Below, one piece after another: positions 22,297 through 38,475 of a stretch of DNA of 52,332 nucleotides. The stretch is taken from positions 1-52,332 of the IMG/VR virus record IMGVR_UViG_3300023103_000007; one strand, written 5' to 3'. The first letter of the stretch is position 1. Every line of letters starts with the position of its first letter. The DNA is from a virus (Duplodnaviria; Caudoviricetes). Position numbers and translations under genes: made by a program. Below the pieces are notes generated by a model, which was not told the origin of the DNA, searched no databases, and was given only the letters and a program-made list of their open reading frames with translations.

Positions 22297-22306
22297 CTCT
22301 GTCTCC

Positions 22307-22804: not shown

Positions 22805-22836
22805 TGTCTTCTCTCCTTGTGTCTTACCTGAGACAG

Positions 22837-22865
22837 ATCATAGCTCATGATCTCAGGGCTGTAAA
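22837..22865 (-). promoter_or_regulatory. Phage promoter (TTTAC family)
   Basis: TTTACA-N17-TATGAT. Confidence 0.7.
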
Positions 22866-22887
22866 GCGAAATGTTGATGAATCTGTG

Positions 22888-22903
22888 TTATACCTTAGTA
22901 TAA
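22888..22903. promoter_or_regulatory. Palindromic operator-like site
   Basis: TTATAC-CTTA-GTATAA; identical copy at 24108-24123. Confidence 0.65.
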
Positions 22904-22921
22904 TGCCTGAGTGCACTCCTC

Positions 22922-23580: not shown

Positions 23581-23792
23581 CAGTCCACTCTCCTCAGGAT
23601 GCAGCTGTTGCTGCTCTGTGGTACGACAACCATTCGGCATATGCGTCTCTCCCCAGACAAGGAGGGACTCATGTTGACCATGGCGTCTCCCTCATGAGTG
23701 AGGGTCATCATGATACTGGTACCGTCAGGTAGGATCACCCTCACTGACTGATCCCTGTACCTCAGGCTAACTACTGTACTCATGTCTGTCAT
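23580..23792 (-). CDS. Hypothetical early protein
   Basis: Beta-rich 70-aa ORF in the operon. Confidence 0.5.
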   Translation of the reverse strand: MTDMSTVVSLRYRDQSVRVILPDGTSIMMTLTHEGDAMVNMSPSLSGERRICRMVVVPQSSNSCILRRVD

Positions 23793-23797
23793 AGGTA

Positions 23798-23884
23798 TCA
23801 CCCCAGCAGTGTATTTGCAGCAAGGGACCAAAGTGGCATCGTAGCCAGCAGACCCCAGACGATCTTCTCTCTCACGCTCAGCAT
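23798..23884 (-). CDS. 28-aa hydrophobic peptide
   Basis: Not in the ORF track: MLSVREKIVWGLLATMPLWSLAANTLLG; GGGAGG RBS and TGATG coupling. Confidence 0.45.
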   Translation of the reverse strand: MLSVREKIVWGLLATMPLWSLAANTLLG

Positions 23885-24027
23885 CACATCACCTCCCATC
23901 TTGTGTAGAACACCACCCGACCACTGACCATGCAGCGCCCATGTACCTTGTACACCTCAACTACTCGCCCCTGTGCCCTCAGCTCCGCTGCAAGGGCTGT
24001 GGCCTGCCGTCTTGTCATCCTGGTCAT
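23884..24027 (-). CDS. 47-aa first early protein
   Basis: Not in the ORF track: MTRMTRRQATALAAELRAQGRVVEVYKVHG...; GAGGAG RBS downstream of the 24057-24085 promoter. Confidence 0.6.
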   Translation of the reverse strand: MTRMTRRQATALAAELRAQGRVVEVYKVHGRCMVSGRVVFYTRWEVM

Positions 24028-24056
24028 CTGTGGTCTCCTCTGTCTGTCCTGACACT

Positions 24057-24085
24057 ACACTAGCGCAGCTCGAGGAGGAAGTAAA
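24057..24085 (-). promoter_or_regulatory. Phage promoter (TTTAC family)
   Basis: TTTACT-N17-TAGTGT. Confidence 0.55.
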
Positions 24086-24107
24086 GTGACTTGATGATGG
24101 TTGTGTG

Positions 24108-24123
24108 TTATACCTTAGTATAA
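24108..24123. promoter_or_regulatory. Palindromic operator-like site
   Basis: TTATACCTTAGTATAA, at the same distance from the -35 as the copy at 22888. Confidence 0.65.
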
Positions 24124-24165
24124 CATGGCTCGCAGACTGTGGAGTATGGTGAACGAGCGCGTGCG

Positions 24166-24194
24166 CACATACTACATTCTCTGCAGGATGTAAA
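24166..24194 (-). promoter_or_regulatory. Candidate phage promoter (TTTAC family)
   Basis: TTTACA-N17-TATGTG. Confidence 0.4.
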
Positions 24195-24674
24195 CCCCTA
24201 CCATAGTATAATACAAATTCACTCTACATCCCTCATGATCCGGACTAGTGTGGTCCAGGGTCACTGGTCTTAACTTCAGTGCCATGACCCCAGTCGTGGT
24301 CTACAGCGACGACAAGCTGCACCAGATCGAGGTCGCCCACCCAGTGAGCAATATGAGCACTATCACCCTGTACTGGCATCACGGATGACGCCTCATCTCC
24401 ACCAGACCTCGCCACCACGCTCTCTCCTCGAGGCTATCGAGGAGGGTCTGGGGAGGGAGGGGTGAGACTCATGAATCCTCAGAGCATGGTGGATGACTCA
24501 GGAGGTATCCTGATACCTCTGTCTGCCAGTGGGTGTGGATGAGGTGATCGGGATGATGGTCTGTGGTGTGTGGTGTGTGGTGTGCTGTGAGGAGAGGGTG
24601 GACTGCAGGGGGTGGTGTTTGGACCGAGTCCACCGACCAACGGCCACCATCCCCTATCTTCGCCTGTCTCACCA

Positions 24675-24724
24675 TATCATATGATATCATCACCTATCAT
24701 ATGATATCGTATACTTTAGTATAA
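24675..24724. repeat. Tandem palindromes plus an operator variant
   Basis: TATCATATGATA at 24675 and 24695 (20-bp period), then GTATACTTTAGTATAA at 24709-24724. Confidence 0.75.
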
Positions 24725-25529
24725 GACCACAGACCACAACCTCCTGCAGTCAGCACAGGCTCCATGGTCCATCATCAGGACACCCACACTATCGTCATCA
24801 GGCACCATGCCCAGCAACAGCCCCTCCCCCGATCACCGACTCCACACCTGTCATCCCTGACTCAGGACTATGGTCCATCGTCCCCCACAGTACACCTATA
24901 GCACAGAGACAGTAGAGACACAGTACACCTACAGTACAGTACAGTATACAGGACGACGAGAATAGACGATGTAGAGTAGATCTACAGTACAGCGACAGCA
25001 CCGAGAACCACCGAAGTACACTCTCACGACAGTCACCTCACTGGTCCAGAGTCCGTCGTCCCTGTCTGCTGCAGTCAGCACCAGCTGGCTCCTACACCAC
25101 TCAGGACACTGGGGGTATCGTGACGACAGACTACGTGCGCCTGCCCACGTACGACAAGCTGTCATCATACTTGCCAGGAGACCTGGCGTCCTCGTCCACT
25201 GGTGACTCTGGGGTAGCCTCTAGGGGTAGGTCGCTCGTCCGTCGTCACGATCAGGCGAGGACAGCAGCTAATGACCCCTATTATACTAAAATATAATAAG
25301 ATAATTCATCAGGTGACTCTAACAAGGAGATGAAGATGACACAGCTGAACTGAGTGTCACTCAGGGTAAGTTGGCTGTGCTAAGTGACTAGAGACATGGT
25401 GACAGCCCATGGTCTGTGATCAACACATCATGGAGTGATCACAGGCAAGTCAGGTGAGATAAGATCAGATGGGTAATAGGGGTAGGGGGTAGGGGCGCAT
25501 TATAGGCTTGCACATAGCCGGACTCATTT

Positions 25530-25970
25530 TCACTGAGGCTCTTGACGCAGAAGAATCCTCCTCACAGAGTCCCAGTTCCACTTCGATGGTCCACCAGACC
25601 AACACCCCAGAACATAGTCAGCACCGTCCTGGAGACCACCGGACAGACACCTGGATGCATCCCCTCCATCGAGTATCCACAGCTCATCCACAGCCCCTCC
25701 CCGACGTGGCCCACCATCATGTCTCCTCCTCACCCCAATGAGGACATGACCACCAGCACGAGCACGTCTCTCAAGCCATGCAACCTGATGAGGACGAAGA
25801 GTAACCGATCGGGAGGGGGTCTGCTTCAGCTCTATCCACCCCTCCACCCCACAGCCGCAGAAGTTGGCATCAGGAACTCCCATCCCTGTCGCTCCCACCT
25901 CAATCGACTGCCAGTGAAACTCCCTCAGTCTCTGACGCAGTATGCTCCTCAGGTCACCGTCAGTACTCAA
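25530..25970 (-). CDS. VRR-NUC / PD-(D/E)XK Holliday-junction-resolvase-like nuclease
   Basis: IE...GVPD...WIELK...LRPHQVAWL.RR..AGG. Confidence 0.85.
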   Translation of the reverse strand: MSTDGDLRSILRQRLREFHWQSIEVGATGMGVPDANFCGCGVEGWIELKQTPSRSVTLRPHQVAWLERRARAGGHVLIGVRRRHDGGPRRGGAVDELWILDGGDASRCLSGGLQDGADYVLGCWSGGPSKWNWDSVRRILLRQEPQ

Positions 25971-26683
25971 GACCTCCTTCTCCTGTCAAGCTCAGCACGA
26001 GCAGTGTACACATGGTCAGGACACATGCTGTCTCCCTGCCTCACCAACCACTCCAGGTATCCCCAGGGAATCTCACTGAACAGTTCTCCCCTGTGCTTGC
26101 CGAACCTCATCTTAGCCAGCATGGCTGGCTCAGTCGTCATTCTCAGCAGCTCGTCAGCAGTCCTCTCCTGCAGCATCCTCATCAGCAGCTTGGACGTGAC
26201 CCATGCATCATACAGAGCGCGATGAGGTGTCATGCCAGCATCACCAGGCATGTCACTGACGTCCAGCTTCAGCCAGTACCTCAGTGCCTGATTCCCGTGC
26301 GATGGTGCATCTGGCCACAGGTGACATGCACACCTGTATGTGCAGATCCAGCCATTCTCGGCAAACCCATCTGGCATCATGGCTGAGTCGAACTTGGCGT
26401 TGTGAGCCACAGCAACAGCAACATCCTGAAGCTCCTTGTACTCCTCCACCACCTCGCTCATGGTCATCTCCCCCGACACCATCTCCTCAGTGATGTGGTG
26501 CACAGCCATTGCCTCCACCTCAATCGGTGTAGATGGTCTCACCAGCGAGCTCATCCATCCAGCTGTGTCCCAGATGCCAGCATCATCATCCCCCTCATCA
26601 CCACTCTCCAGCACAACTGCTGCAACCTCAATAACCTCACCCTCGAGACCTGTGGTCTCTGTGTCTATCACTGTCAGCCTCAA
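25967..26683 (-). CDS. DEDDh 3'-5' exonuclease, ExoX-like
   Basis: IDTETTG, AHNAKFD, HRALYD; C-terminal MRFGKHRG..FSEIP.GYLEWL. Confidence 0.9.
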   Translation of the reverse strand: MRLTVIDTETTGLEGEVIEVAAVVLESGDEGDDDAGIWDTAGWMSSLVRPSTPIEVEAMAVHHITEEMVSGEMTMSEVVEEYKELQDVAVAVAHNAKFDSAMMPDGFAENGWICTYRCACHLWPDAPSHGNQALRYWLKLDVSDMPGDAGMTPHRALYDAWVTSKLLMRMLQERTADELLRMTTEPAMLAKMRFGKHRGELFSEIPWGYLEWLVRQGDSMCPDHVYTARAELDRRRRS

Positions 26684-26834
26684 GTAACTTCTCCATTATC
26701 TCACTGCACTCCCTCACCTCAGTAGTCAAATTCCTCAGGCGAGAGCCACCTACTCTTCTCCTGACGAGAGCAGTCGATATCTGACCACAGACAGCAGCCA
26801 GCCTCCTGTGTATCTCCTCAAGATCATGAAGCAA
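26637..26834 (-). CDS. Hypothetical helical protein
   Basis: Fills the gap in the leftward operon; TTG start. Confidence 0.4.
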   Translation of the reverse strand: MLHDLEEIHRRLAAVCGQISTALVRRRVGGSRLRNLTTEVRECSEIMEKLLEADSDRHRDHRSRG

Positions 26835-27459
26835 CTTCTATGTACCCACGAGACAGATCATGCTTCACGTCATCCCGAGTCACCCCATCAGGACCACTCA
26901 TTGCCTCACCAACAGTCCTCCCCACCACGTACCTCTTGAACCTCTCATGTGCTGCTGTTCCTGCTCTCTTTGGGTTGTCAGCTACTCGAGTCACCACACT
27001 GTCCTCACACCAGCTGTGCTTGTGCACAGGTACTATCTTCAGTCTCTTCCTACTCCCTCCACTCCTCTCACTCTCACTCTCACTCTCACTGCCACCAGTC
27101 CCCTCACTCCCTCTCCCGTCATCACTATCGGCCACACCATCACTCGCAGCTATGAATCCCCCAGTAGCATCCAGACAGAGTTCAGCTATCCTCACCCCAT
27201 CAGTGGTTCCGTCAGACTCCAGAGCAACAAGTAGATCACTTATGTCCAGACCATGAGACACCAGCTGACTCCCGAGATCCTCAGCAGACAAAGGTTGATC
27301 GGGGGAGGGGTCTGGTCTTGCCTGATGTAGTCTCGTCTGTATGTGCATGAGGTCAGCAGTACTGAGTGACAGGAGACACCTCACGAGTCTTCCGTCATCC
27401 CTCACTGTGTACCCATCACTGACTATTCCTGATGACATCTCTCTCTCCGCATATGACAC
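26824..27459 (-). CDS. NPKR-domain protein 3
   Basis: C-terminal NPKRAGTAAHERFKRYVVGRTVGEA...DDVKHDLSRGYIEV after a Ser/Glu-rich linker. Confidence 0.75.
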   Translation of the reverse strand: MSYAEREMSSGIVSDGYTVRDDGRLVRCLLSLSTADLMHIQTRLHQARPDPSPDQPLSAEDLGSQLVSHGLDISDLLVALESDGTTDGVRIAELCLDATGGFIAASDGVADSDDGRGSEGTGGSESESESERSGGSRKRLKIVPVHKHSWCEDSVVTRVADNPKRAGTAAHERFKRYVVGRTVGEAMSGPDGVTRDDVKHDLSRGYIEVAS

Positions 27460-27466
27460 TGCCTGA

Positions 27467-27495
27467 AGTATATCTCATGTACTCCTCACAGTAAA
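27467..27495 (-). promoter_or_regulatory. Phage promoter (TTTAC family)
   Basis: TTTACT-N17-TATACT. Confidence 0.7.
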
Positions 27496-27590
27496 GTGCT
27501 CGGAAGCCCATACTCACATCATGGAGTCACCTGCAGCCTACGACGACGAGAATAGACGAGTTAAACCTACTTCGGGGAAAACGCTATTGC

Positions 27591-27673
27591 CTATTACTTA
27601 GCCCTTTACGCGTACGCGCCCGCGAGGCTAATTTTTTAAAAATTTCACCGTTATAAGCAATATACTAATAGCA
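27591..27673 (-). repeat. AT-rich plus CG-rich element, copy B (inverted relative to 2772-2848)
   Basis: See copy A. Confidence 0.85.
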
Positions 27674-27817
27674 TGTTTAATAATAACTATACGAAACAGG
27701 TACTTAACACTATTACACTCGTATTACTTTCAGGTCATATCGCAAGATGTAATAGCTCATCAGTGTGTGCAACATCGGGCAATTAACTTCACACATCGCA
27801 CGTCACACATTAGGCTA

Positions 27818-27846
27818 TTTACCCCCCGACAGCCCTGCGCTATAAT
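27818..27846 (+). promoter_or_regulatory. Promoter of the packaging operon
   Basis: TTTACC-N17-TATAAT; ATG 27853 starts 7 nt after the end of the -10 box. Confidence 0.75.
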
Positions 27847-27852
27847 CTCTCT

Positions 27853-28380
27853 ATGTCCGATGCACCGTCCCCCCAGCCCCCTCCTGAACCGTCCCAGCCC
27901 CCCCGAGTTCCTGAGGGACAGAGACCACTCGCGGTGAGGACACCCAGGCGTCAGTCCGACCGTCATGACATGCGTGCTCAGGTGCAGGATGCTGTGCACG
28001 AGTACACCCTGTCCCGCTATCACGAGGACCTGGCTGACGGTGTACCTGAGGAGGAGTGTCAGCGAGTCATAGAGGAGTACAACCCTGTTGTTGAGCTCGC
28101 TCTTGTGGCAGTTGACCGGAGAACAGACACCAAGACTAAGCTGTGGGCTAATGCCGAGATTGCACAGTACATAATGCCCAAGCTCAAGGCTGTGGAGGTC
28201 ACTGAGGATCCTGAGGCCATGCGTCTCCAGGAGGAGAGGAATAGGATAGCCCAGGACTTCATGTCCATGCTTGATGGCATGGCTCGTGAGAAGAGTGCCT
28301 CTGCACGTGTAATTGAGGCAGAGATCTCTAGTGATGATGACGAGGTACATGTCCTACCACCACCGGAGTCAGCAGAGTGA
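27853..28380 (+). CDS. terS: Putative terminase small subunit
   Basis: Directly before TerL; YNPVVELA...AEIAQYIMPKLKAVE pattern. Confidence 0.65.
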   Translation: MSDAPSPQPPPEPSQPPRVPEGQRPLAVRTPRRQSDRHDMRAQVQDAVHEYTLSRYHEDLADGVPEEECQRVIEEYNPVVELALVAVDRRTDTKTKLWANAEIAQYIMPKLKAVEVTEDPEAMRLQEERNRIAQDFMSMLDGMAREKSASARVIEAEISSDDDEVHVLPPPESAE

Positions 28381-29654
28381 GCTCACCAGCCCTTGACGTC
28401 AGCCAGCTCACCACCGACCAGCTTCAGGCCATGACTGCGAGGCGTAGGTGGCTGGAGACTGCTCGTCCGGATCAGCTTCCACCTGCTGACAGGGACTTCC
28501 TGAACTGGATGCTGCTGGCTGGTCGCGGCTCTGGTAAGACTCGTGCAGGTGCAGAGGACGTGTGGTGGGACTGCTTCCGCTCCCCTCTGCGTGTTGCCGT
28601 CATCGGACCGACGAACAGTGACGTGAGGAAGACCTGCTTCGAGGGTGAGTCTGGCCTCCTCTCTGTGATGCCTGGCTCACTCATAAAGTCATACAACAGG
28701 ACATCCCTCGAGATGTGGCTGACGAATGGGAGCTATCTTGTGGGGTACTCCAGTGAGGAGCCTGAGCGTCTGCGTGGTCCTCAGCACCATCTTGCATGGT
28801 GTGAGGAGCTGGGAGCATGGTCCAAGCCCCAGGATACCTGGGACATGATGAAGTTCGGTCTCCGTCTTGGCTCTCGACCTCGTACGATCATAACCACCAC
28901 CCCCCGCCCCACCCCGCTCATGCGGACTCTGGTTGATGATCCTGAGACGATAGTCGCTCGCGCCTCAACGTACGACAACTCGTCCAATCTTCCTGAGTCG
29001 TTCATTGCTGACCTGAGGAAGAAGTACGAGGGGACTCGTCTGGGTGAGCAGGAGCTTCATGCCAAACTTCTGCTGGATACTCCTGGTGCCCTGTGGACTA
29101 CTGAGATGATCCAGGCAGCTAGACAGGGAACTCCTGTTCCGCCGATGACCAGGATAGTTGTTGCTGTTGACCCCTCTGGTACCAGGGGTGACTCGGGAGA
29201 TGAGGTGGGGATAGTGGCAGCAGGTGTGGATGATCTTGGGGGCTATCATGTTCTGTGTGATGCCTCCGTGCGCGGCTCGCCTGATGTATGGGCGAGGGCT
29301 GCTGTTCGTACCTACAACTCACTCAGGGCAGACAGGATTGTGGCAGAGAGGAACTTTGGTGGTGCCATGGTGGAGTCTGTGCTGAGGAGTGTGGATAATT
29401 CTATCCCATACACTGAGGTCTCCGCGAGTCGTGGCAAGGCTGTCCGCGCTGAGCCAGTTGCTGCTCTGTATGAGCAGGGTCGCGTGAGGCACCATGGTGA
29501 CCTGGCAAAGCTGGAGGAGCAGATGTGCGCGATGGCTCCATCAGGATACAGTGGTGACGGGAGTCCGGACAGGATGGACGCTCTTGTGTGGGCACTGAGC
29601 TTCCTGATGGGGAGACCTGGATACTCGATGAGTGACTTGAGGAGAGCACTGTGA
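28377..29654 (+). CDS. terL: Terminase large subunit
   Basis: AGRGSGKT, LRGPQ..AWCEE, TTTP, nuclease AVDPS...SPDRMDALVWA. Confidence 0.95.
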   Translation: MSSPALDVSQLTTDQLQAMTARRRWLETARPDQLPPADRDFLNWMLLAGRGSGKTRAGAEDVWWDCFRSPLRVAVIGPTNSDVRKTCFEGESGLLSVMPGSLIKSYNRTSLEMWLTNGSYLVGYSSEEPERLRGPQHHLAWCEELGAWSKPQDTWDMMKFGLRLGSRPRTIITTTPRPTPLMRTLVDDPETIVARASTYDNSSNLPESFIADLRKKYEGTRLGEQELHAKLLLDTPGALWTTEMIQAARQGTPVPPMTRIVVAVDPSGTRGDSGDEVGIVAAGVDDLGGYHVLCDASVRGSPDVWARAAVRTYNSLRADRIVAERNFGGAMVESVLRSVDNSIPYTEVSASRGKAVRAEPVAALYEQGRVRHHGDLAKLEEQMCAMAPSGYSGDGSPDRMDALVWALSFLMGRPGYSMSDLRRAL

Positions 29655-31501
29655 CGAATACAACAGCGACTGAGCAGCTCACTCGTGAGATGGAGAGTCA
29701 GCAGAGACTTGACTCACTGCTGATTGGGGACAGTCTGACCAACGTGATATCAGCCATAGGTCAGGCAAGCAGTAAGGTGTCGGCAACAACCTACACCATG
29801 CCCACGGATGACTACACAGAGGCGATGGCTGCATACCTCAGCTCTCCGTGGTTTGGTAAGATAGTGGAGATCCCTGCTGATGATGCAGTCAGGGAGTGGA
29901 GGTCTTGGAAGGCGACTCGGCAGCAGATCGAGAGGCTTGAGGCTGAGGAGTCTCGTATTCAGCTCAGGTCTAGGGTCCGGCAGCTGATGATCGAGTCTCG
30001 TGTCAAGGGTGGTGCCATTGCCATTATGGTGGGTCTACCTGGCTCCCCGCAGTCACCTGTCGACCTCAGCAGGATGACCAGGGGCTCCCTGAGGCACATA
30101 GCTGTCGTTGGACGTGACTGCCTCTCCTGTGGTCCTGTGGTACGTGATCCCATGGCGTCAGGGTATGGTATGCCTGAGTACTACACTGTCAGCACTGACT
30201 CTGGTCAGCAGCAGGTGCACCACAGCCGCACTGTCCGGCTGGATGGTCGCAGGCTTCTCTCTGCTCACGGACACCAGGAGTGGGGCACAACAGTCTGGAC
30301 TCACCTTAGGGATGCTGTCAGGTCTGCGGACCTCTCCTCCCCGATCGTCCATCAGCTCATGCTGGAGTCGAAGATTGACATTGTTAAGATCCAGGATCTG
30401 ATTCAGTACCTGGGGACTGAAGAGGGAAGTGAGCTCATCCAGAAGAGGTTCATGCTCGCCAATATGATGAAGTCTGTCGGCAATGCTCTCGTTCTGGACA
30501 AGGATGATGAGTGGCAGCAGCGACAGGTTAGCTGGGCTGGTATTCCTGACGTTGTGTATATGCTTCTCTCCTTCCTGTCAGGTGCTGCTGACATTCCAGT
30601 GACTCGTCTTGTTGGGCTCAGTGCACGTGGTCTCAATGCCACTGGTGAGGGTGACCTGAGGAACTATTATGACAGTGTCAGGTGCTATCAGCAGATAACA
30701 CTTGATCCGGCAATGTCGTCTCTCTCGGAGTGCCTCATACGCTCTGCTCTGGGGTCTCGTCCTGATGATATCTGGTATGAGTGGAGACCACTCTATCAGA
30801 TGACTCGGAAGGAGCAGGCTGAGGTTGACAAGATTGAGTCTGAGACAGTGACTAACTACGTGAATACTGGTCTGGTTCCTGCCGATGCTCTCGCGGAGGC
30901 TGCCCACGTTAGGATGGTGGAGAGCGGAAGCTGGCCAGGGCTGGAGAGGGCACTGGAGTCCTCATCATCCCTCGCCGACCCACCCCTAGAGCCACCTGTG
31001 TCTACTGTAACTGGTGATCCTCCTGGGCGCTCTGGAGTAGCTGATGCAGCCCCTGCACCCCTATACGTGCGCAGACAGGTTCTCAACGCTGCCGAGGTGC
31101 TGAGGTGGGCGAGGTCTCAGGGCTACACAGACACACTCTCAGATGATGATCTTCATGTCACTGTTCTCTACAGTCGCACACCTGTGGACTGGATGAGTAT
31201 ACCTGAGTCTCACTCCTCTCGTGTTGAGGTTACTCCTGGTGGTCCTCGGGTGGTGGAGAGGTTCTCTGGTGGTGCCTCTGTCCTGAGGTTCAGGTCGTAC
31301 GATCTTGAGTGGAGGCACTCTCACATGGTGGAGCTGGGTGCAAGTCACGACTTCGACAGCTATCAGCCACATATAACAATCAGCTACTCCCCCGATGCAC
31401 CTGATCCTGAGAGTGTAGAGCCATATCGTGGCAGGATACTCCTGGGTCCGGAGGTGTTTGAGTCCATAGACGAGAACTGGAGGGAGAGAGTTGGAGGTTG
31501 A
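29651..31501 (+). CDS. Portal protein (DUF1073-type) fused to a C-terminal Acb1-like 2H phosphoesterase
   Basis: IVEIPADDAVREWR, GAADIPVTRLVG..GLNATGEGD..NYYD; C-terminal LHVTVLYS and PHITISY (two HxT motifs). Confidence 0.88.
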   Translation: MTNTTATEQLTREMESQQRLDSLLIGDSLTNVISAIGQASSKVSATTYTMPTDDYTEAMAAYLSSPWFGKIVEIPADDAVREWRSWKATRQQIERLEAEESRIQLRSRVRQLMIESRVKGGAIAIMVGLPGSPQSPVDLSRMTRGSLRHIAVVGRDCLSCGPVVRDPMASGYGMPEYYTVSTDSGQQQVHHSRTVRLDGRRLLSAHGHQEWGTTVWTHLRDAVRSADLSSPIVHQLMLESKIDIVKIQDLIQYLGTEEGSELIQKRFMLANMMKSVGNALVLDKDDEWQQRQVSWAGIPDVVYMLLSFLSGAADIPVTRLVGLSARGLNATGEGDLRNYYDSVRCYQQITLDPAMSSLSECLIRSALGSRPDDIWYEWRPLYQMTRKEQAEVDKIESETVTNYVNTGLVPADALAEAAHVRMVESGSWPGLERALESSSSLADPPLEPPVSTVTGDPPGRSGVADAAPAPLYVRRQVLNAAEVLRWARSQGYTDTLSDDDLHVTVLYSRTPVDWMSIPESHSSRVEVTPGGPRVVERFSGGASVLRFRSYDLEWRHSHMVELGASHDFDSYQPHITISYSPDAPDPESVEPYRGRILLGPEVFESIDENWRERVGG

Positions 31502-32288
31502 TCTTCTGTCTCTTGCTCGTGATGCTGGTTCTAGGAGGGGTGAGTATCTCATTCAGCCGACAGAGCCCACTCGGTCTCAGTCTCAGGATCTACAGCGGAT
31601 ACTGATACTTGCTGCTCTACTGTGGAGGGATGGGTACAGATCATCTGTGATTCCGGCATACAGGGCTGCTCTTATCTCTGGGTCACTGAGGAGTGTTGTG
31701 TCTGCTGTGGATCTTGTGTACTCAGGATCATCCTCTGTTCTGGGTAGTATATCCTCTGGTGTGAGGGAGTGGGCGTCCTCTCTTCAGTCCAGACACATGA
31801 GGATGTTCATCTCTAGGGTCAGGTCACTGACTCGAGTGGACCTCACCAGTAGGATTAGCTCTGCTGATGTTGAGTCTGTCATTGATGACTTCACTCTGTA
31901 CGTGACCTCTCTGGCTGATGATGTGTCTGGTGACACTAGGTCTGCGATTATTGGTGTAGTCTCCAGAGGGCTGCAGTCTGGTGCCTCTACTGATGATGTT
32001 GCTGCGGAGATAGCCGCGATCATTGGTGTCTCACTCTCTAGAGCAAGGAGAATAGCTGTCGACCAGACAGCAAAGCTCACTGCTGCCCTGGACAGGGCGA
32101 GACAGACCCAGGTCGGGGCTGACAGCTTCATATGGGTTCACTCTAGGAAGGAGAGGTTTCGTCCCCACCACAAGGCTAGAGATGGTCAGGAGTTCAGGTG
32201 GGACAGCCAGGTGGCTAGGACTGATCCTCCTGGTCACGCACCATTCTGTGGGTGCAGCGCTAGGGGGGTACTCAGGGATGGCGAGTAG
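31491..32288 (+). CDS. Head morphogenesis protein (SPP1 gp7 / Mu gpF-like)
   Basis: RARRIAVDQTAKL, W...RPHHKARDG..F.W, PG...CGC. Confidence 0.85.
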   Translation: MEVDLLSLARDAGSRRGEYLIQPTEPTRSQSQDLQRILILAALLWRDGYRSSVIPAYRAALISGSLRSVVSAVDLVYSGSSSVLGSISSGVREWASSLQSRHMRMFISRVRSLTRVDLTSRISSADVESVIDDFTLYVTSLADDVSGDTRSAIIGVVSRGLQSGASTDDVAAEIAAIIGVSLSRARRIAVDQTAKLTAALDRARQTQVGADSFIWVHSRKERFRPHHKARDGQEFRWDSQVARTDPPGHAPFCGCSARGVLRDGE

Positions 32289-32688
32289 GATGACTGGGCA
32301 GGACGCAGTGGCCAGGAGGTTCCGCAGGATGTCCTCTGGTGTCACTGATGCTGTTGAGGATGCTCTGGTTGAGCTTGGTGGTCAGGTGAGGGACGAGGCT
32401 CGTCTCTCCATTATCGAGGGGTCAGTGTCTGGTCCTGGGCATGTTCCCTCTGCACCAGGAGAGCCGCCGAATGCTGACACTGGTCACCTGGACGAGAGTA
32501 TACATGTCACATCATACGTGCGAGGAGGTACGGTGACTGTTGAGGTGTCTGCGGACGCAGAGTATGCAGCTGACCTGGAGTATGGTAACTCCAGGATAGC
32601 AGAGAGACCATTCATGCGTCCTGCAACAGCTAAGGTGCGTCCTCGTGTTCCTGCTGGGGTCAGGGTTGCCGTCAGGAGGCTTCGCTGA
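32278..32688 (+). CDS. HK97 gp10-like neck protein
   Basis: PSAPGEPPNADTGHLDESI, YAADLEYG...ERPFMRPA. Confidence 0.85.
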   Translation: MASRMTGQDAVARRFRRMSSGVTDAVEDALVELGGQVRDEARLSIIEGSVSGPGHVPSAPGEPPNADTGHLDESIHVTSYVRGGTVTVEVSADAEYAADLEYGNSRIAERPFMRPATAKVRPRVPAGVRVAVRRLR

Positions 32689-33332
32689 TGGTGTCCATGG
32701 TCGGTGATACTCTGGTTCGTGATGGCTTCTGGTCAGCTCCTCGTGAGTTTGATGGACAGAGAGTCTATATTCTTGGTGGTGGCTACACACTTCATGGGTT
32801 TGATCCCTCACCACTCAGGCAAAGCGGGGGTGTCATAGCCTGCAACAGTGCCGGTCTGACGATTGCTCCATGGGCAGATGTCCTGATCTATGGTGACGAG
32901 AGGTGGCTTGAGTGGAACGTGGACAAAATTCATCTGTTCAGTGGTCGTCACGTAGTCTCTAGGAGTCGTGTGCCTCGTTCTTCTCCACACCCAAGAGTCA
33001 GGGTGATGCATCACACCAGCCCCTCCCCCGCCCTCTCCGTGTCTCCCTCATCCCTCTCAGGTCACTGCACGGGAGGGAGTGCTATAAACCTGGCATTCTT
33101 GATGGGTGCTGTGGAGATTGTTCTTCTGGGATATGATATGAGACCTGGTAACTTTCATGACATGCACAGGGTTCCTCCTGAGGAGGAGCAGCATGCTCTC
33201 AGGTTTATCCCTGCTATTGAGGCTATGGCGCCTGTACTGGTGTCTCATGGGGTCAGGGTTATCAACTCCACTCCTCACAGTGAGCTCAGGTGCTTTGAGT
33301 ACATGCCGCTGAGTGAGCTGGCAGTACACTAG
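32688..33332 (+). CDS. DUF115/sialyltransferase-like Rossmann-fold transferase
   Basis: VYILGGG, IACN, ADVL..GD..W, TGGSAINLAFLMGA.EIVLLGYDM, VINST..S.L.CF. Confidence 0.6.
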   Translation: MVSMVGDTLVRDGFWSAPREFDGQRVYILGGGYTLHGFDPSPLRQSGGVIACNSAGLTIAPWADVLIYGDERWLEWNVDKIHLFSGRHVVSRSRVPRSSPHPRVRVMHHTSPSPALSVSPSSLSGHCTGGSAINLAFLMGAVEIVLLGYDMRPGNFHDMHRVPPEEEQHALRFIPAIEAMAPVLVSHGVRVINSTPHSELRCFEYMPLSELAVH

Positions 33333-33371
33333 AGACGAAGTAAGCGAAGAGTTTAGACGAAGTACAGGGGC

Positions 33372-33400
33372 TTTCGCATTTCTTCGTTTTCGAGTAGAGT
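33372..33400 (+). promoter_or_regulatory. Candidate promoter of the capsid operon
   Basis: GGGGC-TTTCGC-N17-TAGAGT in the only gap before the protease gene. Confidence 0.35.
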
Positions 33401-33432
33401 AGTTCGTAGTTCCTGAGCCGTTGTGGTTTACT

Positions 33433-34533
33433 ATGAGCAAAGTCTCCCTCACTGATACTGTCCCGCTGTCCTCCGTGAGGCAGACGAGTGATGGCTATCT
33501 CGTGGCTGAGGCTAGGGTTGCTCGCTCAGGTGTGCAGGAGTACTCCGGTGCTGAGGTTGATCCTGACAACATTCATGGTCTTCGGGATCGGGATGTTGTC
33601 AGGGTCTATCGCCCAGAGGATGAGGTGTTCTCCAGGGACACTCTCTCCTCGTATGCACACAGACCAGTGACTATAGGTCACCCCAGGGAGATGGTGAGTG
33701 CTGACAACTGGCGAGATCTGGCTGTTGGTAACACTGGTGGTGACGTTGCTCGTGATGGGCAGTTCGTCAGGGTTCCCCTGGTTCTCATGGACTCCAGTGC
33801 CGTGAGGGTTGTCAGTGGTGGGACTCGTGAGCTCAGTATGGGGTATACAGCTGAGCTGGTGTTTGACTCTGGGACTACTCCTGATGGTCAGGAGTACGAT
33901 GTTGTTCAGAGGTCAATGAGGATGAATCACCTTGCTGTTGTCGCTGCAGCACGTGGTGGCTCTAGTCTTAGAATAGGCGATCAAGAGGAAATTAAAGTGT
34001 CACTTCGGAAGATGCAGGTTGATGGCATCACGATTGAGGCTACTGAGCAGGCAGCAGAGGCTATTCAGCGACTGCAGTCTCAGCTCAGTGATGCTCGGTC
34101 TGATGCCGATCGTCGTCTGACAGAGTCTCAGGCAAAATTGGACAAGTTGCAGGCAGAGCTCGATGATGCTCGTAGCAAGGTGATGACTGACGCTCAGCTC
34201 GAGAAGCGAGTTGCTGAGAGGTCTAAGCTAATTGCAGATGCTCGCAGCATTCGTGCAGATATCCGGACTGATGGTCTCACTGACTCTCAGGTTCGCAGGG
34301 CTGCTGTGGCTGCTGTCCGTGGTGAGTCTGCTGTCGCTGACAAGTCTGACGCTTACGTGGAGGCATCCTTTGACCTCATTCTTGCAGATACAGCATCAGC
34401 AAGGACTCTTGGTCATGCCCTGACTGGTCTGTCTTCTCAGGTCAGTGATCAGGGTTTTGCCGATGCCGCTGCTCAGGAGCAGAAGGCATGGGAGAGTCAG
34501 CTGAAGAGACTTGATCGCGTGAGGGAGAGCTGA
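33433..34533 (+). CDS. DUF2213 prohead protease/scaffold
   Basis: DGYLVA.ARVAR.GVQ.Y, VYRP..EVF, PVT.GHP, ELSMGY, NHLAVV..ARGG; coiled-coil C-terminus. Confidence 0.9.
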   Translation: MSKVSLTDTVPLSSVRQTSDGYLVAEARVARSGVQEYSGAEVDPDNIHGLRDRDVVRVYRPEDEVFSRDTLSSYAHRPVTIGHPREMVSADNWRDLAVGNTGGDVARDGQFVRVPLVLMDSSAVRVVSGGTRELSMGYTAELVFDSGTTPDGQEYDVVQRSMRMNHLAVVAAARGGSSLRIGDQEEIKVSLRKMQVDGITIEATEQAAEAIQRLQSQLSDARSDADRRLTESQAKLDKLQAELDDARSKVMTDAQLEKRVAERSKLIADARSIRADIRTDGLTDSQVRRAAVAAVRGESAVADKSDAYVEASFDLILADTASARTLGHALTGLSSQVSDQGFADAAAQEQKAWESQLKRLDRVRES

Positions 34534-34534
34534 C

Positions 34535-34990
34535 ATGCCAGCAATTCAGTCCACTATCTCGCAGTTTATTGGTATTGGTGCAGTTGGTCGCAGGGCTAAC
34601 ATGGAGGAGTGGAACACTGTTACACTTACCGCACAGACCACTGCTCCTGCAACCATTGGCTTTGCACAGCCAGTGAAGCTTGGTTCTCTTGACAAGACAG
34701 CTGTCATCTACAATGGCTCTGGTGTCTTCAAGGGACTGACAGAGGCTTCCATTGATCGCTCTGCCTACTCTGACACGGATGATATGCCTGTCTGTGAGTC
34801 TGGTGTGATGTTCGGTCTCGCTGGTGGTGCGTGCACTGCTGGTGGTGCTGTTGGCTGGAGCTCCTCCACTGGCAAGTATGCCAATGCAGCCTCTGGCAAT
34901 ATTACAATCCCCAACGCTGAGTTTGACTCCTCTGCAACGGCCGATGGTCAGGTTGTGAGGATTCGTCTCCGCCGCATACCAGGAGGCTGA
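34535..34990 (+). CDS. Head decoration/cement protein
   Basis: Between scaffold and capsid genes; IGFAQPV, F.G, IPNAEF pattern. Confidence 0.7.
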   Translation: MPAIQSTISQFIGIGAVGRRANMEEWNTVTLTAQTTAPATIGFAQPVKLGSLDKTAVIYNGSGVFKGLTEASIDRSAYSDTDDMPVCESGVMFGLAGGACTAGGAVGWSSSTGKYANAASGNITIPNAEFDSSATADGQVVRIRLRRIPGG

Positions 34991-34994
34991 CACA

Positions 34995-36047
34995 ATGGCT
35001 GGTGGTACTCTCATTGCAGCCCCTTCAGGGATGCCTGCTCTTACTCTGCCTGATGGTAGGTTTGTTGATGCTCAGTCGATCAACATAAACTTTGCTCGCA
35101 GCCGCTCCAACGTCATCAATGCTCGCGCCTACATGATCGAGTATGATGATCTCGACTTCGAGTCACTTGTTCCTGTGGACAGGTCTGTTCCTGAGTGGGC
35201 AAATGGCATCGACACCTATGTCGGCGACATTGTTGGCAAGGCTGACTGGTACACTGGTGCGGCAAAGGACATTCCTATTGCTGACACCACTGAGGACATG
35301 ATCACCTCCAAGTTCTCGATGTTCGCTGTTGGTTACCAGTGGAATCTTGAGGAGCTTGGCAAGGCTCAGTTCATGAACTTCCCACTCTCCCCCCGCCGTG
35401 CCATGGCTGCTCGTCGTGCTGCGAGGGAGTTTGAGTTCGTGAACGCGATCTCTGGGTCGGTCAAGAAGAAGTATCCTGGTCTCATCAACCAGACTGGAGT
35501 CACTCCTACCACACTCCCTGCTGATGGTACTGGCAGTGCCACCTTCTGGGTGAACAATTCAGGTGTCGCTGTCAAGACACCAGCCCAGATTGTTCGTGAC
35601 ATGGACAACATGGTTCTGGGTCCAGTGAACCCTGACAGCACTGCTGTCAATGTTCTTGCTGACACTCTCCTTCTTCCTCCTCTTGCTTACCGTCATATTG
35701 CGACAACACCCTATGGTGAGACGTCTCCCAATAAGACGATTCTGCAGTATTACTTGGACAACAACCTGTACCGTGCTCGCACGGGACGTCAGGTGACTAT
35801 TCGTGAGCTTCCTCAGCTCTCTCGTGCAGCCACTCAGGGTACTGTTGGTGGTGGTCGTGCTCTTGCCTACAGGAACACGAGCGATGTGCTGACAATGTAC
35901 TATCCGATGCCGTTCCGCTTCTTGCCTGTGTATCAGGATGGTCCAATACACTGGACTGTACCAGGAATTGGTCGTATTGGTCAGGTCGATGTCATGCTTC
36001 CGTATGCTTTCAGGTACTTCGACGGCGTGACTCCTGTTCCAGCCTGA
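34995..36047 (+). CDS. Major capsid protein (DUF2184-like, HK97 fold)
   Basis: 350 aa; GYQWNLEEL, GLIN, DTLLLPP, PMPFRFLP. Confidence 0.88.
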   Translation: MAGGTLIAAPSGMPALTLPDGRFVDAQSININFARSRSNVINARAYMIEYDDLDFESLVPVDRSVPEWANGIDTYVGDIVGKADWYTGAAKDIPIADTTEDMITSKFSMFAVGYQWNLEELGKAQFMNFPLSPRRAMAARRAAREFEFVNAISGSVKKKYPGLINQTGVTPTTLPADGTGSATFWVNNSGVAVKTPAQIVRDMDNMVLGPVNPDSTAVNVLADTLLLPPLAYRHIATTPYGETSPNKTILQYYLDNNLYRARTGRQVTIRELPQLSRAATQGTVGGGRALAYRNTSDVLTMYYPMPFRFLPVYQDGPIHWTVPGIGRIGQVDVMLPYAFRYFDGVTPVPA

Positions 36048-36059
36048 TTGAGGTGACTC

Positions 36060-36521
36060 TTGGCACTTACTCCTGCCGAGTTCAAGACACTGAAGCCACA
36101 GTTCTCATCTGTTGATGATTCTGTGGTTCAGTCTTATCTGGACATGAGCTCCCTGCTTGTGGATGACTCCTGGGGTGCTCAGCAGGACATTGCCCAGGCG
36201 GCAGCCACCTGTCACCTTATGACCCTTGATGGTCTCGGAGACAGCAGGGAGTCAGGGGGATTCAGGAGTGGTATGAGTGAGTTCCAGAGGATTGAGTCTG
36301 GTAAGCTCAGTCTCACCAGGTTCTCTGGTGATGCGTCCTCTGGCTTGAGCTACTCCTCGTGGCTGTCTAGAACTTTCTGTGGGAAGTTCTACCTCATGCT
36401 CTTGAGGAGGAGGGGTGGTCCTCTAGTTCTGTACGGGGGTGGCTGCTTCTCCTCCTCAAGATATGCAAAGGACACCTGCACTCCCATCAGTTATGGTTGG
36501 CCAGGAGTATTCTTCCCATGA
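36060..36521 (+). CDS. Head-tail connector (DUF4054-like)
   Basis: EFK...PQF..V.D..V..YL, W, CHL, T.CGK.Y..L. Confidence 0.75.
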   Translation: MALTPAEFKTLKPQFSSVDDSVVQSYLDMSSLLVDDSWGAQQDIAQAAATCHLMTLDGLGDSRESGGFRSGMSEFQRIESGKLSLTRFSGDASSGLSYSSWLSRTFCGKFYLMLLRRRGGPLVLYGGGCFSSSRYAKDTCTPISYGWPGVFFP

Positions 36522-36865
36522 GTATTCTGGATGGAGATATCAGGGATCTCTTTGGCTCTGTCTTCAGTGATATCTGGGACACAGCTCATCTCGTCAGGGT
36601 CTCTCAGGTGAGTGACGGGCGAGGAGGAGGAACAGAGACTCCCTCCCCGCCAGTGTCCGTGAGGGTGCAGTTTGATGATGACACTGACAGAGAGTCATCT
36701 GGATCAGTGAAGAGGTTCACTCGTGTTCTGGTTCTTCAGTCTGGTGTAGTGAGTGCTCCAGACACTAGCAGTTATATTATGTCTGGGTCCAGGAGACTGG
36801 CTGTTCGCAGGGTTGATGAGGATCCCGCGAGGAGTTACTGGGAGCTGGATTGTGAGGAGATGTAG
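36518..36865 (+). CDS. Head-tail adaptor/stopper
   Basis: SDGRGG and VDEDPA..YWEL; position in the neck module. Confidence 0.7.
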   Translation: MSILDGDIRDLFGSVFSDIWDTAHLVRVSQVSDGRGGGTETPSPPVSVRVQFDDDTDRESSGSVKRFTRVLVLQSGVVSAPDTSSYIMSGSRRLAVRRVDEDPARSYWELDCEEM

Positions 36866-37030
36866 ATGCCCTGGGTGAGGTTCACTCGTGACTTTGAGTA
36901 TCGTCCTCGCCCAAGGGCGATACAGATATTCCGGAGGGGGCAGGTGCTTCTAGTGACAAGAGCCTGCGCACAGGCTGCAGTTGACTCTGGTGCTGCTGAG
37001 TTATCTTCCAGGGAGGGTAAGATTGGCTGA
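36866..37030 (+). CDS. 54-aa neck-module protein
   Basis: Not in the ORF track: MPWVRFTRDFEYRP...VTRACAQAAVDSGAA; GAGGAG RBS. Confidence 0.7.
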   Translation: MPWVRFTRDFEYRPRPRAIQIFRRGQVLLVTRACAQAAVDSGAAELSSREGKIG

Positions 37031-37430
37031 TCACTCTCTTGCTATGCGTCGAGCTGTCGTTCAACACCTGCTTCAGGGTTCCGTCTCTGGTATGGTTGGG
37101 GGAAGAATATATGGTGAGGAGGCTCCAGAGAACAGTGAGCTTCCCTTCATCAGGTACGGTCTCCCAGTAACGACGCCATATGAGAGCAGCTGTGGTCGTG
37201 GGTCTCAGCACTCTATTGTAGTTCATGTTTTCGCCCAGGGACCATACACTGATCTCGTGGCGTCTATCGCGTCTGCAGTTGTTTCCTCTCTGGATGACTC
37301 CTCTCTTCCGGTGGATCCACTCAGGCTGCTGGGGATCTCGTGGACAGGAACAAGAATTATTCGTGACACGGCTGAGATGTCGTCATATCACGCGATTGTG
37401 TCACTTACTGCACAGACAATAGGAGACTAG
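37023..37430 (+). CDS. Tail terminator (DUF3168, GTA-like)
   Basis: GGRIY...P....LPFIRYG, VHVF; TTG start after GGGAGG. Confidence 0.75.
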   Translation: MADHSLAMRRAVVQHLLQGSVSGMVGGRIYGEEAPENSELPFIRYGLPVTTPYESSCGRGSQHSIVVHVFAQGPYTDLVASIASAVVSSLDDSSLPVDPLRLLGISWTGTRIIRDTAEMSSYHAIVSLTAQTIGD

Positions 37431-37434
37431 AGAC

Positions 37435-37890
37435 ATGGCACAGGCACAGAGTATCAGGTTCGGCAAGGTATTCATGCTCCTCTCGGACATGGCAAGTACA
37501 CCAACCTTCAGGGCACCTTGTGGATTTGAGGAGTTGACTATGACTATTAATATAGAGTCAAACTCCGTGAATATTCCAGACTGTGAGGATCCTGATCTTG
37601 CTGCCTGGCTCGCAACAGATATTGTCTCGAAGCAGATGACTATATCTGGCTCAGGTCTTCTTGACGTGAATGCTATGAAGATCTGGCAGGACTGGTGGCT
37701 TGGTGACATTCCTGCTCCTGAGGTTCCAGTGAGGTGGTATCGTGACTTGACGGTAGGTCAGAATGGCGGGTACTTTCAGGCTCCTGGTGTCCTCACTGCG
37801 TATGAGGAGACAGGTCAGAGAGGGCAGCGCTGGCAGAACAGTGTCACCATTGCCCTCAACGGCAAACCAACATTCACGCCAGTGGTGTGA
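37435..37890 (+). CDS. Tail tube protein
   Basis: APCG...IPDCEDPD..AW...S..ISGSG. Confidence 0.85.
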   Translation: MAQAQSIRFGKVFMLLSDMASTPTFRAPCGFEELTMTINIESNSVNIPDCEDPDLAAWLATDIVSKQMTISGSGLLDVNAMKIWQDWWLGDIPAPEVPVRWYRDLTVGQNGGYFQAPGVLTAYEETGQRGQRWQNSVTIALNGKPTFTPVV

Positions 37891-37893
37891 CGA

Positions 37894-38313
37894 ATGAGTA
37901 CATCAAGAGTCACTCTCACGTTTGGTGATGGAACATACACCTTCTGCCTCAGGATCAGGGAGATCCTTGAGCTCGAGCGTCTCACTGAGAGCAGCATCGG
38001 TGAGATAGCCACTCGCCTTATGACTGGGGTTCCTCGCATGAGGGACATATATGACTCTGTCAGGCTTGGGCTCATTGGTGGTGGTCTCCCCCCGACATCT
38101 GCTCTCCTCCTGGTGGAGAATTATATTGCTGGTGTGCCTCTGGCGGATCCAAGGGACTCCTCCTCTCCTATGGCTACTGCACAAGCTGTGGTGATGGCTG
38201 TCTGGGTCGGCATGGAGGAGGTTCCAGATACACTATCAAAGGAGGAGGTTCCTCCAGCCCAGGAAGACTCAGGGCTGGAGACATTTATGGAGCAGGGCTT
38301 GCCGCAGGGGTGA
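37894..38313 (+). CDS. Tail assembly chaperone (GTA gp10-like)
   Basis: FGDG.Y.F.L....ELE...VRLGLIGGG..P..A..LV..Y. Confidence 0.85.
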   Translation: MSTSRVTLTFGDGTYTFCLRIREILELERLTESSIGEIATRLMTGVPRMRDIYDSVRLGLIGGGLPPTSALLLVENYIAGVPLADPRDSSSPMATAQAVVMAVWVGMEEVPDTLSKEEVPPAQEDSGLETFMEQGLPQG

Positions 38314-38474
38314 GTCCAGGTGATGTTGGTGACATGAGTCTATCTGAGTTCTTTGTCGCTATGCACGGTCTCTCTTCCCTCAGGAGTGGAAGACCTCAGC
38401 CCATGAGTGACTCGGACTTTGATGATGGAATTGCTGCCCTGAGGTCTGTGGCTGGTGATGACGTGAGGATATGA
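38310..38474 (+). CDS. Tail assembly chaperone extension (probably reached by -1 frameshift)
   Basis: The -1 frame reads ...DIYGAGLAAGVSPGDVGDMSLSEFFVAMHG..., open upstream of 38310. Confidence 0.65.
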   Translation: MSPGDVGDMSLSEFFVAMHGLSSLRSGRPQPMSDSDFDDGIAALRSVAGDDVRI

Positions 38475-38475
38475 A

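Follow-up and report, generated by a model that had tools for sequence, protein, structure and literature searches.

Thymine-centred ApA/TpT depletion and a separable CpG depletion reshape the proteins of an uncultured phage with a predicted thymine-modification module

Why does the head protein of a tailed phage contain no asparagine and only three lysines? The question was raised by a head morphogenesis gene in IMG/VR virus record IMGVR_UViG_3300023103_000007 (Duplodnaviria; Caudoviricetes), one whole linear record of 52,332 bp with an estimated completeness of 83%, which is analysed here at its full length and called the window. A first-pass annotation, made from the letters of the sequence, had claimed that avoidance of ApA/TpT and CpG in this phage is strong enough to alter its proteins, and had attributed the avoidance to selection against neighbouring modified thymines. 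The gene in question is

31491..32288, + strand, Mu F/SPP1 gp7-like head morphogenesis protein of 265 amino acids (aa) (PF04233 E=1.4e-17; phrog_324).

Within this gene, AA occurs 6 times against 29.3 expected (0.20), TT 28 times against 58.9 (0.48) and CG 19 times against 56.1 (0.34). From 31476, the window goes 570 nucleotides (nt) without an AA, its longest such run, which holds the start of the open reading frame (ORF); in 100 mononucleotide shuffles, the longest run had a mean of 186 nt and a maximum of 304 nt. The counts given earlier for 31681-31860 (0 AA, 6 TT and 2 CG) are exact, as are the 265 aa, the 3 Lys, the 0 Asn and the presence of DQTAKLT and PFCGC; the protein also holds 38 Ser and 31 Arg. 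The idea that homologues usually read KLN and NCRC at these two places, however, does not hold against the 16 nearest homologues: all 17 sequences carry PFCGC without variation, and after KL they have S, G, T or A. Indeed, D191, Q192, K195 and PFCGC, the C-terminal motifs of Phage_Mu_F, are invariant between this protein and 16 homologues, as expected of a family member. It is outside the cited motifs that the protein is reshaped: Lys makes up 1.1% of residues versus 2.5-5.3% in the 16 nearest homologues, Asn 0% versus 1.1-3.3%, and Ser 14.3% versus a maximum of 8.6%.

The head protein is not alone. In the portal protein, Lys (1.8% versus 4.5%) and Asn (1.6% versus 3.5%) are both lower than in 48 of 48 homologues, and Arg (8.1%) and Ser (10.6%) are both higher than in all 48. 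Across 11 orthologous genes of the replication and modification module described below, Lys is 3.5% in the window, 3.6% in the related contig G001 and 4.2-8.6% in 27 other sequences. The proteome as a whole contains 2.7% Lys, 2.2% Asn, 9.1% Ser, 8.5% Arg and 3.7% Gln. The dinucleotide bias thus lowers Lys and Asn and raises Arg (through AGR codons, R being a purine) and Ser relative to homologues.

The bias itself is real, and larger than first noted. Odds ratios over the whole window are 0.64 for AA, 0.67 for TT, 0.48 for CG and 0.72 for TA. In the core (1001-45000, both strands; G+C content (GC) about 53%), AA/TT is 0.57, CG 0.47, TA 0.68 and GpC 0.76, and CA/TG (1.35), AG/CT (1.35) and GA/TC (1.31) are enriched, which bears out the GA/AG/CT/TC-rich, Ser/Arg-rich signature seen earlier by eye. 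Seven of the 10 symmetrised classes lie beyond the genome-signature thresholds of ≤0.78 or ≥1.23 (as quoted in PMC11282364) across this 44-kb core, an extreme signature. Odds ratios with codon-position control, conditioned on base frequencies per position, confirmed the depletion of AA/TT and of CG at all codon positions. At positions 1-2, 2-3 and 3-1, respectively, the ratios are 0.68, 0.19 and 0.63 for AA, 0.83, 0.79 and 0.23 for TT, and 0.57, 0.35 and 0.49 for CG. Bootstrapping over genes gave 0.17 (interval 0.13-0.22) for AA(2-3) and 0.22 (0.17-0.27) for TT(3-1), with AA(3-1) at 0.63 and TT(2-3) at 0.79. Intergenic DNA (5 kb) is biased too (AA/TT 0.68, CG 0.59). The spread of log odds ratios at synonymous sites is 0.55-0.59 here, 0.43-0.48 in G001, 0.33-0.37 in PhiJL001 and 0.08-0.29 in 14 comparison genomes. 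No bacterial locus or other phage sequence examined joins an AA/TT depletion near 0.57 with a CG depletion near 0.47.

The signature is not uniform along the record. Sliding windows, a per-gene table and symmetrised odds ratios divide it as follows:

1107..45678, unstranded, core with the full signature.
45679..49100, + strand, island 1: tail-fibre/GDSL protein, a small ORF and the 5′ part of the endolysin gene; GC 0.35-0.42, AA/TT 0.79-1.03, CG 0.15-0.73.
49101..50208, + strand, core signature resumed: 3′ part of the endolysin gene and two small genes; AA/TT 0.26-0.61, share of NAA codons 0.00.
50184..52332, − strand, island 2 (terminal): helix-turn-helix regulator and unassigned genes; AA/TT 1.07-1.36, CG 0.72-1.0, share of NAA codons 0.54-0.66.

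The ratio NAA/(NAA+NAG) is 0.00-0.14 in every core gene (1166 to 45674 and 49467 to 50208) and 0.54-0.67 in 45679-48378, 48613-49470, 50184-52087 and 777-1106, the last being a gene at the opposite contig end with a composition like that of island 2. The island limits drawn earlier (45780-49110 and the terminal island) were right for AA/TT; CpG depletion, however, runs on through 45.7-49.1 kb (0.15-0.73 per 600-nt window, 0.39 in the fibre gene) and recovers only in the terminal island. The record thus falls into three strata: both biases occur in the core, CpG depletion alone in island 1, and neither in island 2. Since CpG loss reaches into island 1, where AA/TT is normal, it is independent of AA/TT loss. 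Island 1 is a horizontally acquired, low-GC tail-fibre module. Its fibre protein has only 3 homologues (35-57% identity), a terminal-island protein had no match in bacterial genomes, and relatives of the endolysin (25-54% identity) are broadly from Hyphomicrobiales and indicate no specific host. Within the endolysin gene (48613-49470), composition changes at about 48.8-49.1 kb from island-like in the 5′ part to core-like in the 3′ part, which suggests a recombination joint between the GH108 and peptidoglycan-binding parts. Two core genes (14112-14561 and 3550-4377) are also unusual: the TerB-like one of the pair has CG 0.86, 8.8% Lys and only 11% of its Arg codons as AGR, and the Pam3 gp34-like one has no AGR codons at all, while NAA codons are still avoided in both (0.02-0.03).

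We found that the signal is carried by dinucleotides and not by restriction sites. Trinucleotides and 4-mer palindromes are accounted for by their sub-words (Markov ratios mostly 0.8-1.3), and 15 of 16 4-mer palindromes lie at 0.71-1.30 of Markov expectation, so that palindromes as a class are not avoided. The sole palindrome clearly depleted beyond the dinucleotide level is GGCC, with 53 occurrences in the core, or 0.49 of the expectation based on trinucleotides. A log-linear model with two terms, {TT,TA,AA} and {CG}, reproduced all ten odds ratios with a root-mean-square log error of 0.087, versus 0.350 for the null; single terms gave 0.278 (AA/TT), 0.259 (CG) and 0.235 (enrichment of T then G/C). 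CpG decay was rejected as the sole source of AA/TT loss, because a model with CG only gives AA 0.93.

The pattern has a direction. The synonymous choice of T rather than C, T3/(T3+C3), falls from 0.78 before G and 0.67 before C to 0.28 before A and 0.12 before T, and that of A rather than G from 0.72 after C and 0.42 after G to 0.18 after T and 0.05 after A; the two series are mutual reverse complements, and the identity of a pyrimidine is set chiefly by its own 3′ neighbour. Odds ratios at positions 2-3 correlate with those of the reverse complement at 3-1 at r=0.91 (0.95 for non-palindromic pairs), versus 0.57 (0.51) for same-strand mapping. The bias is strand-symmetric and therefore acts on duplex DNA, not on translation; the 0.95, far above 0.51, rules out a cause at the level of translation or mRNA. 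The reverse-complement correlation is 0.34-0.85 in 13 of 14 comparators and 0.02 in PaMx11; since such symmetry is common elsewhere, amplitude is what is unusual here. Within TT, a free 5′ T is avoided at 0.22 and a free 3′ T at 0.79, an avoidance about four-fold stronger for the 5′ T. The bias has, thus, two parts. The first is a shortage of TT and, less distinctly, of TA, with TG and TC in their place; it is strongest at a synonymous T that has T on its 3′ side, and on the opposite strand it appears as depletion of AA and enrichment of CA and GA. The second, separable from the first, is CpG depletion, with CGN codons replaced by AGR and NCG avoided. Both descriptions are firm.

Codon usage has been displaced accordingly. 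NAA codons make up 91 of 1704 NAR codons in the core (GAA/GAG 33/824, AAA/AAG 34/325, CAA/CAG 24/464). A general avoidance of A-ending codons through tRNA supply was rejected, as GCA, GGA, ACA, CCA, TCA, AGA and ATA are in free use. AGG is the commonest Arg codon (516 of 1132, with AGR at 67%), and ATA the commonest of 587 Ile codons (ATA 239, ATC 180, ATT 168). Two tRNA genes lie between gene 7773-8504, on the UvrD side of the module, and the kinase gene:

8514..8590, + strand, tRNA with anticodon CAT (ARAGORN; Rfam RF00005, 61.7 bits; cloverleaf fold).
8676..8752, + strand, tRNA-Arg(CCT), decoding AGG (ARAGORN; Rfam, 62.5 bits).

The stems of the CAT tRNA are not of the initiator type, and it is possibly an elongator tRNA-Met or a lysidine-type tRNA-Ile2 reading ATA. 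Phage-encoded tRNAs can offset codon usage that is unlike the host's, and possession of an AGG tRNA fits a pressure at the DNA level that moves codon use away from host supply. The contigs of G001-G003, the three closest relatives, yielded no tRNA gene. The window contains 146 ORFs of at least 80 aa in 52 kb, many of them long and antisense, such as a 347-aa ORF on the minus strand at 12295-13338, opposite the thymidylate-synthase-like gene; depletion of TA and AA probably gives rise to these long antisense ORFs, some of which a naive longest-ORF caller takes.

What in the phage could produce a thymine-centred bias? Profile scans (Pfam, PHROG) of 62 ORFs returned a siphovirus gene set, with large terminase, portal-Acb1 fusion, Mu F-like head protein, protease, major capsid, tail, tape measure and fibre genes. 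The replication and nucleotide module comprises an SNF2 helicase, Pam3 gp33/gp34-like proteins, an AEP primase, a UvrD helicase, a 5-hydroxymethyldeoxyuridine (5-hmdU) DNA kinase, a dCTP-deaminase-like protein, a TAGT-like glycosyltransferase, a thymidylate-synthase-family enzyme, an HD hydrolase and a family A polymerase. Its part relevant to thymine is:

9252..10238, + strand, 5-hmdU DNA kinase homologue (PF18723 E=1.3e-43; phrog_2396).
10235..10744, + strand, dCTP deaminase/dUTPase-like protein (PF22769 E=7.5e-16; phrog_1663).
10741..11181, + strand, phrog_12275 protein, present in many module relatives.
11298..12104, + strand, TET-associated-type (TAGT-like) glycosyltransferase within the thymine-modification cluster (PF20691 E=4.5e-24; phrog_842).
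12418..13398, + strand, thymidylate-synthase-family enzyme, putative dUMP hydroxymethylase (PF00303 E=7.2e-24; phrog_5131 E=1.1e-91).
13395..13949, + strand, HD-domain deoxynucleotide phosphohydrolase (PF12917, phrog_6047).
15767..17755, + strand, family A DNA polymerase with a 3′-5′ exonuclease domain (PF00476, PF01612).

The PF18723 match allies the window with the 5-hmdU-kinase-type systems of Lee et al. (2018, 2021), and the hydroxymethylase-family and nucleotide-pool enzymes (PF00303, PF22769, HD) stand beside the phage DNA polymerase (PF00476) at 10235-17755, although dUMP hydroxymethylation remains a putative chemistry suggested by family membership. No separate aGPT-Pplase or amino-acid:DNA transferase had a Pfam or PHROG match among the 62 ORFs scanned; the cluster holds instead the PF20691 glycosyltransferase and two ORFs without family assignment. 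Judging from these genes, the modification may be a glycosylated form of 5-hmdU, of which the papers cited here give no description.

The phage has no close relative in the collections searched, because a megablast of 7.7 kb against cultured phages gave no DNA-level match and the most similar portal in a set of 5.8 billion proteins has 49% identity; a capsid protein search in IMG/VR gave no match either, and these searches returned no relative above about 50% protein identity. Other features of the gene set stand apart from the bias. The portal (29651-31501) ends in an Acb1 (anti-CBASS) domain (PF23474 E=2e-40), a two-domain architecture present in nearly all of the 120 homologues listed. The product of 14733-15119 has an N-terminal match to the T7 gp5.9 RecBCD-inhibitor family (PF25708, E=8e-16), which suggests a host carrying RecBCD. 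A domain of about 55 aa is common to the proteins of 7773-8504 and 26824-27459 and forms tandem repeats in unrelated IMG/VR contigs (L074, L075).

We consider the modification context the most likely cause of the first part of the bias, as a tentative preference. On this reading, thymines barred from hypermodification by their 3′ neighbour would remain plain 5-hmdU; the block might lie in an enzyme that favours T before G/C, or in a modified T shutting out its neighbour. Over time these thymines would vanish, through selection against unprotected sites or because plain 5-hmdU might be more mutable or more often repaired. The reading is favoured because the pattern is thymine-centred, dependent on the 3′ neighbour, strand-symmetric and restricted to the long-resident core, and also because kinase-positive phages lean the same way and two context rules have been published. 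In M6, ViI and PhiW-14, the sites that resist restriction suggest TG/TC as the context of modified T (Flodman et al. 2019, PMC6449724), and in SP-15 adjacent hypermodified residues were never found, for which its authors propose steric or charge interference (Kropinski et al. 2018, PMC5977210). PMC6449724 and PMC8989533 name the modified bases of M6, ViI, PhiW-14 and PaMx11, and Lee et al. 2018 (PMC5889632) state that the modification motifs were not known.

The lean of kinase-positive phages comes from a comparison of 30 kinase-positive sequences (excluding the window and G001) with 13 phage sequences without a kinase match, which left out the near-duplicates L006, L008, L009, L010, L014, L016 and L028 and the short L020. 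Median TT is 0.98 in the former and 1.09 in the latter (Mann-Whitney p=0.009, uncorrected for phylogeny), and the T-then-G/C index 1.16 versus 1.09 (p=0.003, likewise uncorrected). With a GC covariate and bacterial loci added, the kinase effect is +0.084 (t=6.1, relatedness ignored). Phages without a kinase match range from 0.97 to 1.27 in AA/TT. Kinase-encoding phages lean towards the window as a group, but the gene cluster does not predict the bias.

The window kinase is 33-52% identical to homologues at 31 IMG/VR loci, many of which share the full module including the glycosyltransferase. One of the 31 loci has AA/TT ≤0.70 (L002), and five have CG <0.78, four of these at 36-43% GC. L002 lies within G001, a 43.9-kb contig (GC 0.62, AA/TT 0.67 overall, CG 0.84) whose 4-kb windows have AA/TT of 0.52-0.71 as far as about 40 kb, the last one reaching 0.98. 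G001 shows the same 5′-T asymmetry, its replication and modification proteins are 25-57% identical to those of the window, and among the sequences compared it alone shares the bias. G002 and G003, which are about 75% identical to each other in nucleotides over 13 kb of the module, are nearer to the window by helicase identity (61%) than G001. G001 and G003 carry the phrog_12275 gene, which was not found in G002; as a cause it was set aside, since its association with low NAA use across loci is not separable from relatedness and from GC at third codon positions.

Several observations weigh against the modification-context reading. It is weakened by G002, by unbiased cultured phages that encode the kinase, and by the modification having been read from genes. 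G002 has the same syntenic module (GC 0.54) with AA/TT 1.05, AA(2-3) 1.20 and TT(3-1) 0.79, and the module is, therefore, not sufficient for the bias; G003, also syntenic, is at 0.82 (GC 0.60). None of the 31 IMG/VR kinase loci combines AA/TT ≤0.70 with CG <0.78, and none of the 30 other kinase-positive sequences has TT below 0.78. AA/TT in cultured kinase-encoding phages is 1.12 in Vi01, 0.99 in PhiW-14, 1.11 in SP10 (which we take to carry a modification), 1.01 in PaMx11 and 1.13 in PAE1 (presumably resembling M6; frame-free values alone were used, as its gene calls look poor, with 1.8% Lys); in PhiJL001 it is 0.86. Host-matched pairs differ little (PaMx11 1.01 versus D3 1.10 and D3112 1.07; Vi01 1.12 versus P22 1.13 and FelixO1 1.07). 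The group comparison ignores phylogeny, and its controls are heterogeneous, L074, L075 and L078 being fragments in which a kinase was merely unseen. There are also difficulties within the window. The two-term model recovers the AG/CT enrichment of 1.35 only partly (1.19). Context repair is weak where the free base lies 3′ of a fixed T (TT 0.79, TA 0.86), so that loss of the T itself is a better fit than selection on context. Finally, comparators of similar GC span 0.62-0.83 for TA and so include the 0.68 seen here, which leaves a rule of T then A/T inseparable from one of TT only.

Among the alternatives, the one that survives best is a lineage-specific, neighbour-dependent mutation bias of phage replication or repair, unrelated to modified thymines (for instance transitions at T before A/T and at C before G/C), which we nevertheless hold to be unlikely. 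Proteome-wide amino-acid shifts are typical of mutation pressure. Strand symmetry and the role of the 3′ neighbour for both T and C agree with such a bias, as do the affected intergenic DNA, the recently acquired islands, which would not yet have been converted, and G001, which has the first part of the bias too and a polymerase 50% identical to that of the window. However, the polymerases of G002 and G003 are 53-55% identical and these contigs lack the bias, and no mechanism can be assigned to a gene. Synonymous sites are saturated against all relatives, leaving the direction of substitution unreadable, which also counts against this explanation.

The first-pass annotation had proposed that adjacent hypermodified thymines collide sterically or electrostatically, so that selection removes TT and, on the opposite strand, AA; this we consider improbable. 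TT/AA is indeed the most unusual component, the interference proposed for SP-15 is of this kind, and AA/TT in the first 100 kb of SP-15 (0.88) is the lowest of four Bacillus phages compared (0.97-1.20 in the other three). Removal of either T would, however, suffice to relieve a clash, yet the free 5′ T stands at 0.22 and the free 3′ T at 0.79, and SP-15 itself lacks the 5′/3′ asymmetry (0.67/0.73 and 0.92/0.71). The TT values of PhiW-14 and Vi01 are 0.99 and 1.12 despite bulky or charged groups on about 40-50% of T (PMC6449724), G002 has the same module without depletion, and CpG loss is left unexplained. What stands of the proposal is a thymine-centred nearest-neighbour effect at the DNA level, confined to the core, that reshapes proteins; the predictive value of the cluster, the symmetry of a clash and the inclusion of CpG do not.

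Similarly improbable for the bias as a whole is adaptation to the host or environment, through mimicry of a host signature, a thermophile-type signature or avoidance of AT-rich patches recognized by xenogeneic silencers; we rate it higher for the CpG part alone. Preference for AGR among Arg codons and for ATA among Ile codons is reportedly, after Lynn, Singer and Hickey, a thermophile trait, and both are found here, together with the low CpG. Thermophile proteomes are also enriched in charged residues (Lys, Glu) over polar ones, an enrichment not seen in the window (2.7% Lys, 9.1% Ser, charged minus polar about 3.5%). Bacterial CpG depletion is associated with thermophily (Forni et al. 2024, PMC11282364). 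Island 1 shares the CpG loss, which makes that part look environmental, and CG is as low as 0.50 in FelixO1 (L135-L138) and 0.43 in SPO1 (L109-L112), neither of which has a kinase-type modification module. The most likely source of part two is a pressure that the phage shares with the gene pool of local phages and that is not tied to thymine modification. For AA/TT the evidence is adverse: islands 1 and 2 lack the depletion, the phage's own tRNA-Arg(CCU) implies a mismatch with host supply, and none of 38 bacterial loci, mostly from Hyphomicrobiales, falls below 0.93 (range 0.93-1.27). A generic codon context of high-GC alphaproteobacteria is ruled out by 34 alphaproteobacterial loci with usable ORFs (AA(2-3) 1.09-2.38, TT(3-1) 0.94-1.83). 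Over 15,304 bacterial genomes, the most depleted pair is TpA, not ApA/TpT (PMC11282364).

Avoidance of restriction sites, or of GC-only words lacking a modifiable T, is very improbable: CCGG, CGCG, GCGC and GGCC do stand at 0.23-0.31 of mononucleotide expectation, and GGCC is low even against its own trinucleotides, but TTAA and AATT are depleted as much, sub-words explain the other 15 palindromes, which rules out palindrome avoidance, and a host enzyme cutting GGCC would account for that single word.

A bolder form of the modification-context reading is that the composition is the evolutionary imprint of a sequence rule of hypermodification, with T before A/T purged at the cost of Lys and Asn in every core protein and of an AGG tRNA; we regard this as doubtful. 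If true, one could infer the modification motif of an uncultured phage from its sequence. If the bias tracks modifiable thymines, composition would be a cheap predictor of modification context in metagenomic phages, and the case would show that DNA modification can drive proteome evolution; if it is purely mutational, this phage would offer a natural viral example of neighbour-dependent mutation that is unusually clean. Genomes of this kind hold many long spurious antisense ORFs, and their shifted codons mislead both gene callers and host predictors. Most dinucleotide signatures are mild and are credited to host-like replication and repair; this phage lies far outside every comparator, with a departure big enough to shift protein composition and accompanied by a compensating tRNA. 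Our literature search found no account of ApA/TpT depletion in thymine-hypermodified phages.

Compared with known systems, the bias is described by the same statistic and thresholds as Karlin-type genome signatures, in which CpG loss with TG/CA excess is already a known pattern; the difference is AA/TT 0.57 together with CG 0.47 at 53% GC. As with other compensating tRNAs of phages, tRNA-Arg(CCU) pairs with the top Arg codon, AGG, but the codon preference is here a by-product of CGN avoidance and not of an overall GC gap. SP-15 is the documented case of neighbour exclusion, with adjacent T never both hypermodified (PMC5977210), and it displays a mild form of the signature of the window (CG 0.74, AG/CT 1.24, GA/TC 1.22). 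Its depletion is, however, weak and lacks the 5′-T asymmetry, no match to the kinase family PF18723 was found, and ordinary T stays in place so that TT is not removed from the sequence. The closest likeness is to the 'TS' context (T then G or C) of M6, ViI and PhiW-14: the window encodes a homologue of the kinase, and its T row reads TG 1.35, TC 1.31, TA 0.68 and TT 0.57. The rule in those phages comes from restriction resistance, and their genomes have not been reshaped (TT 0.99-1.13), whereas the genome of the window, whose modification is predicted from its genes, has seemingly adapted to it.

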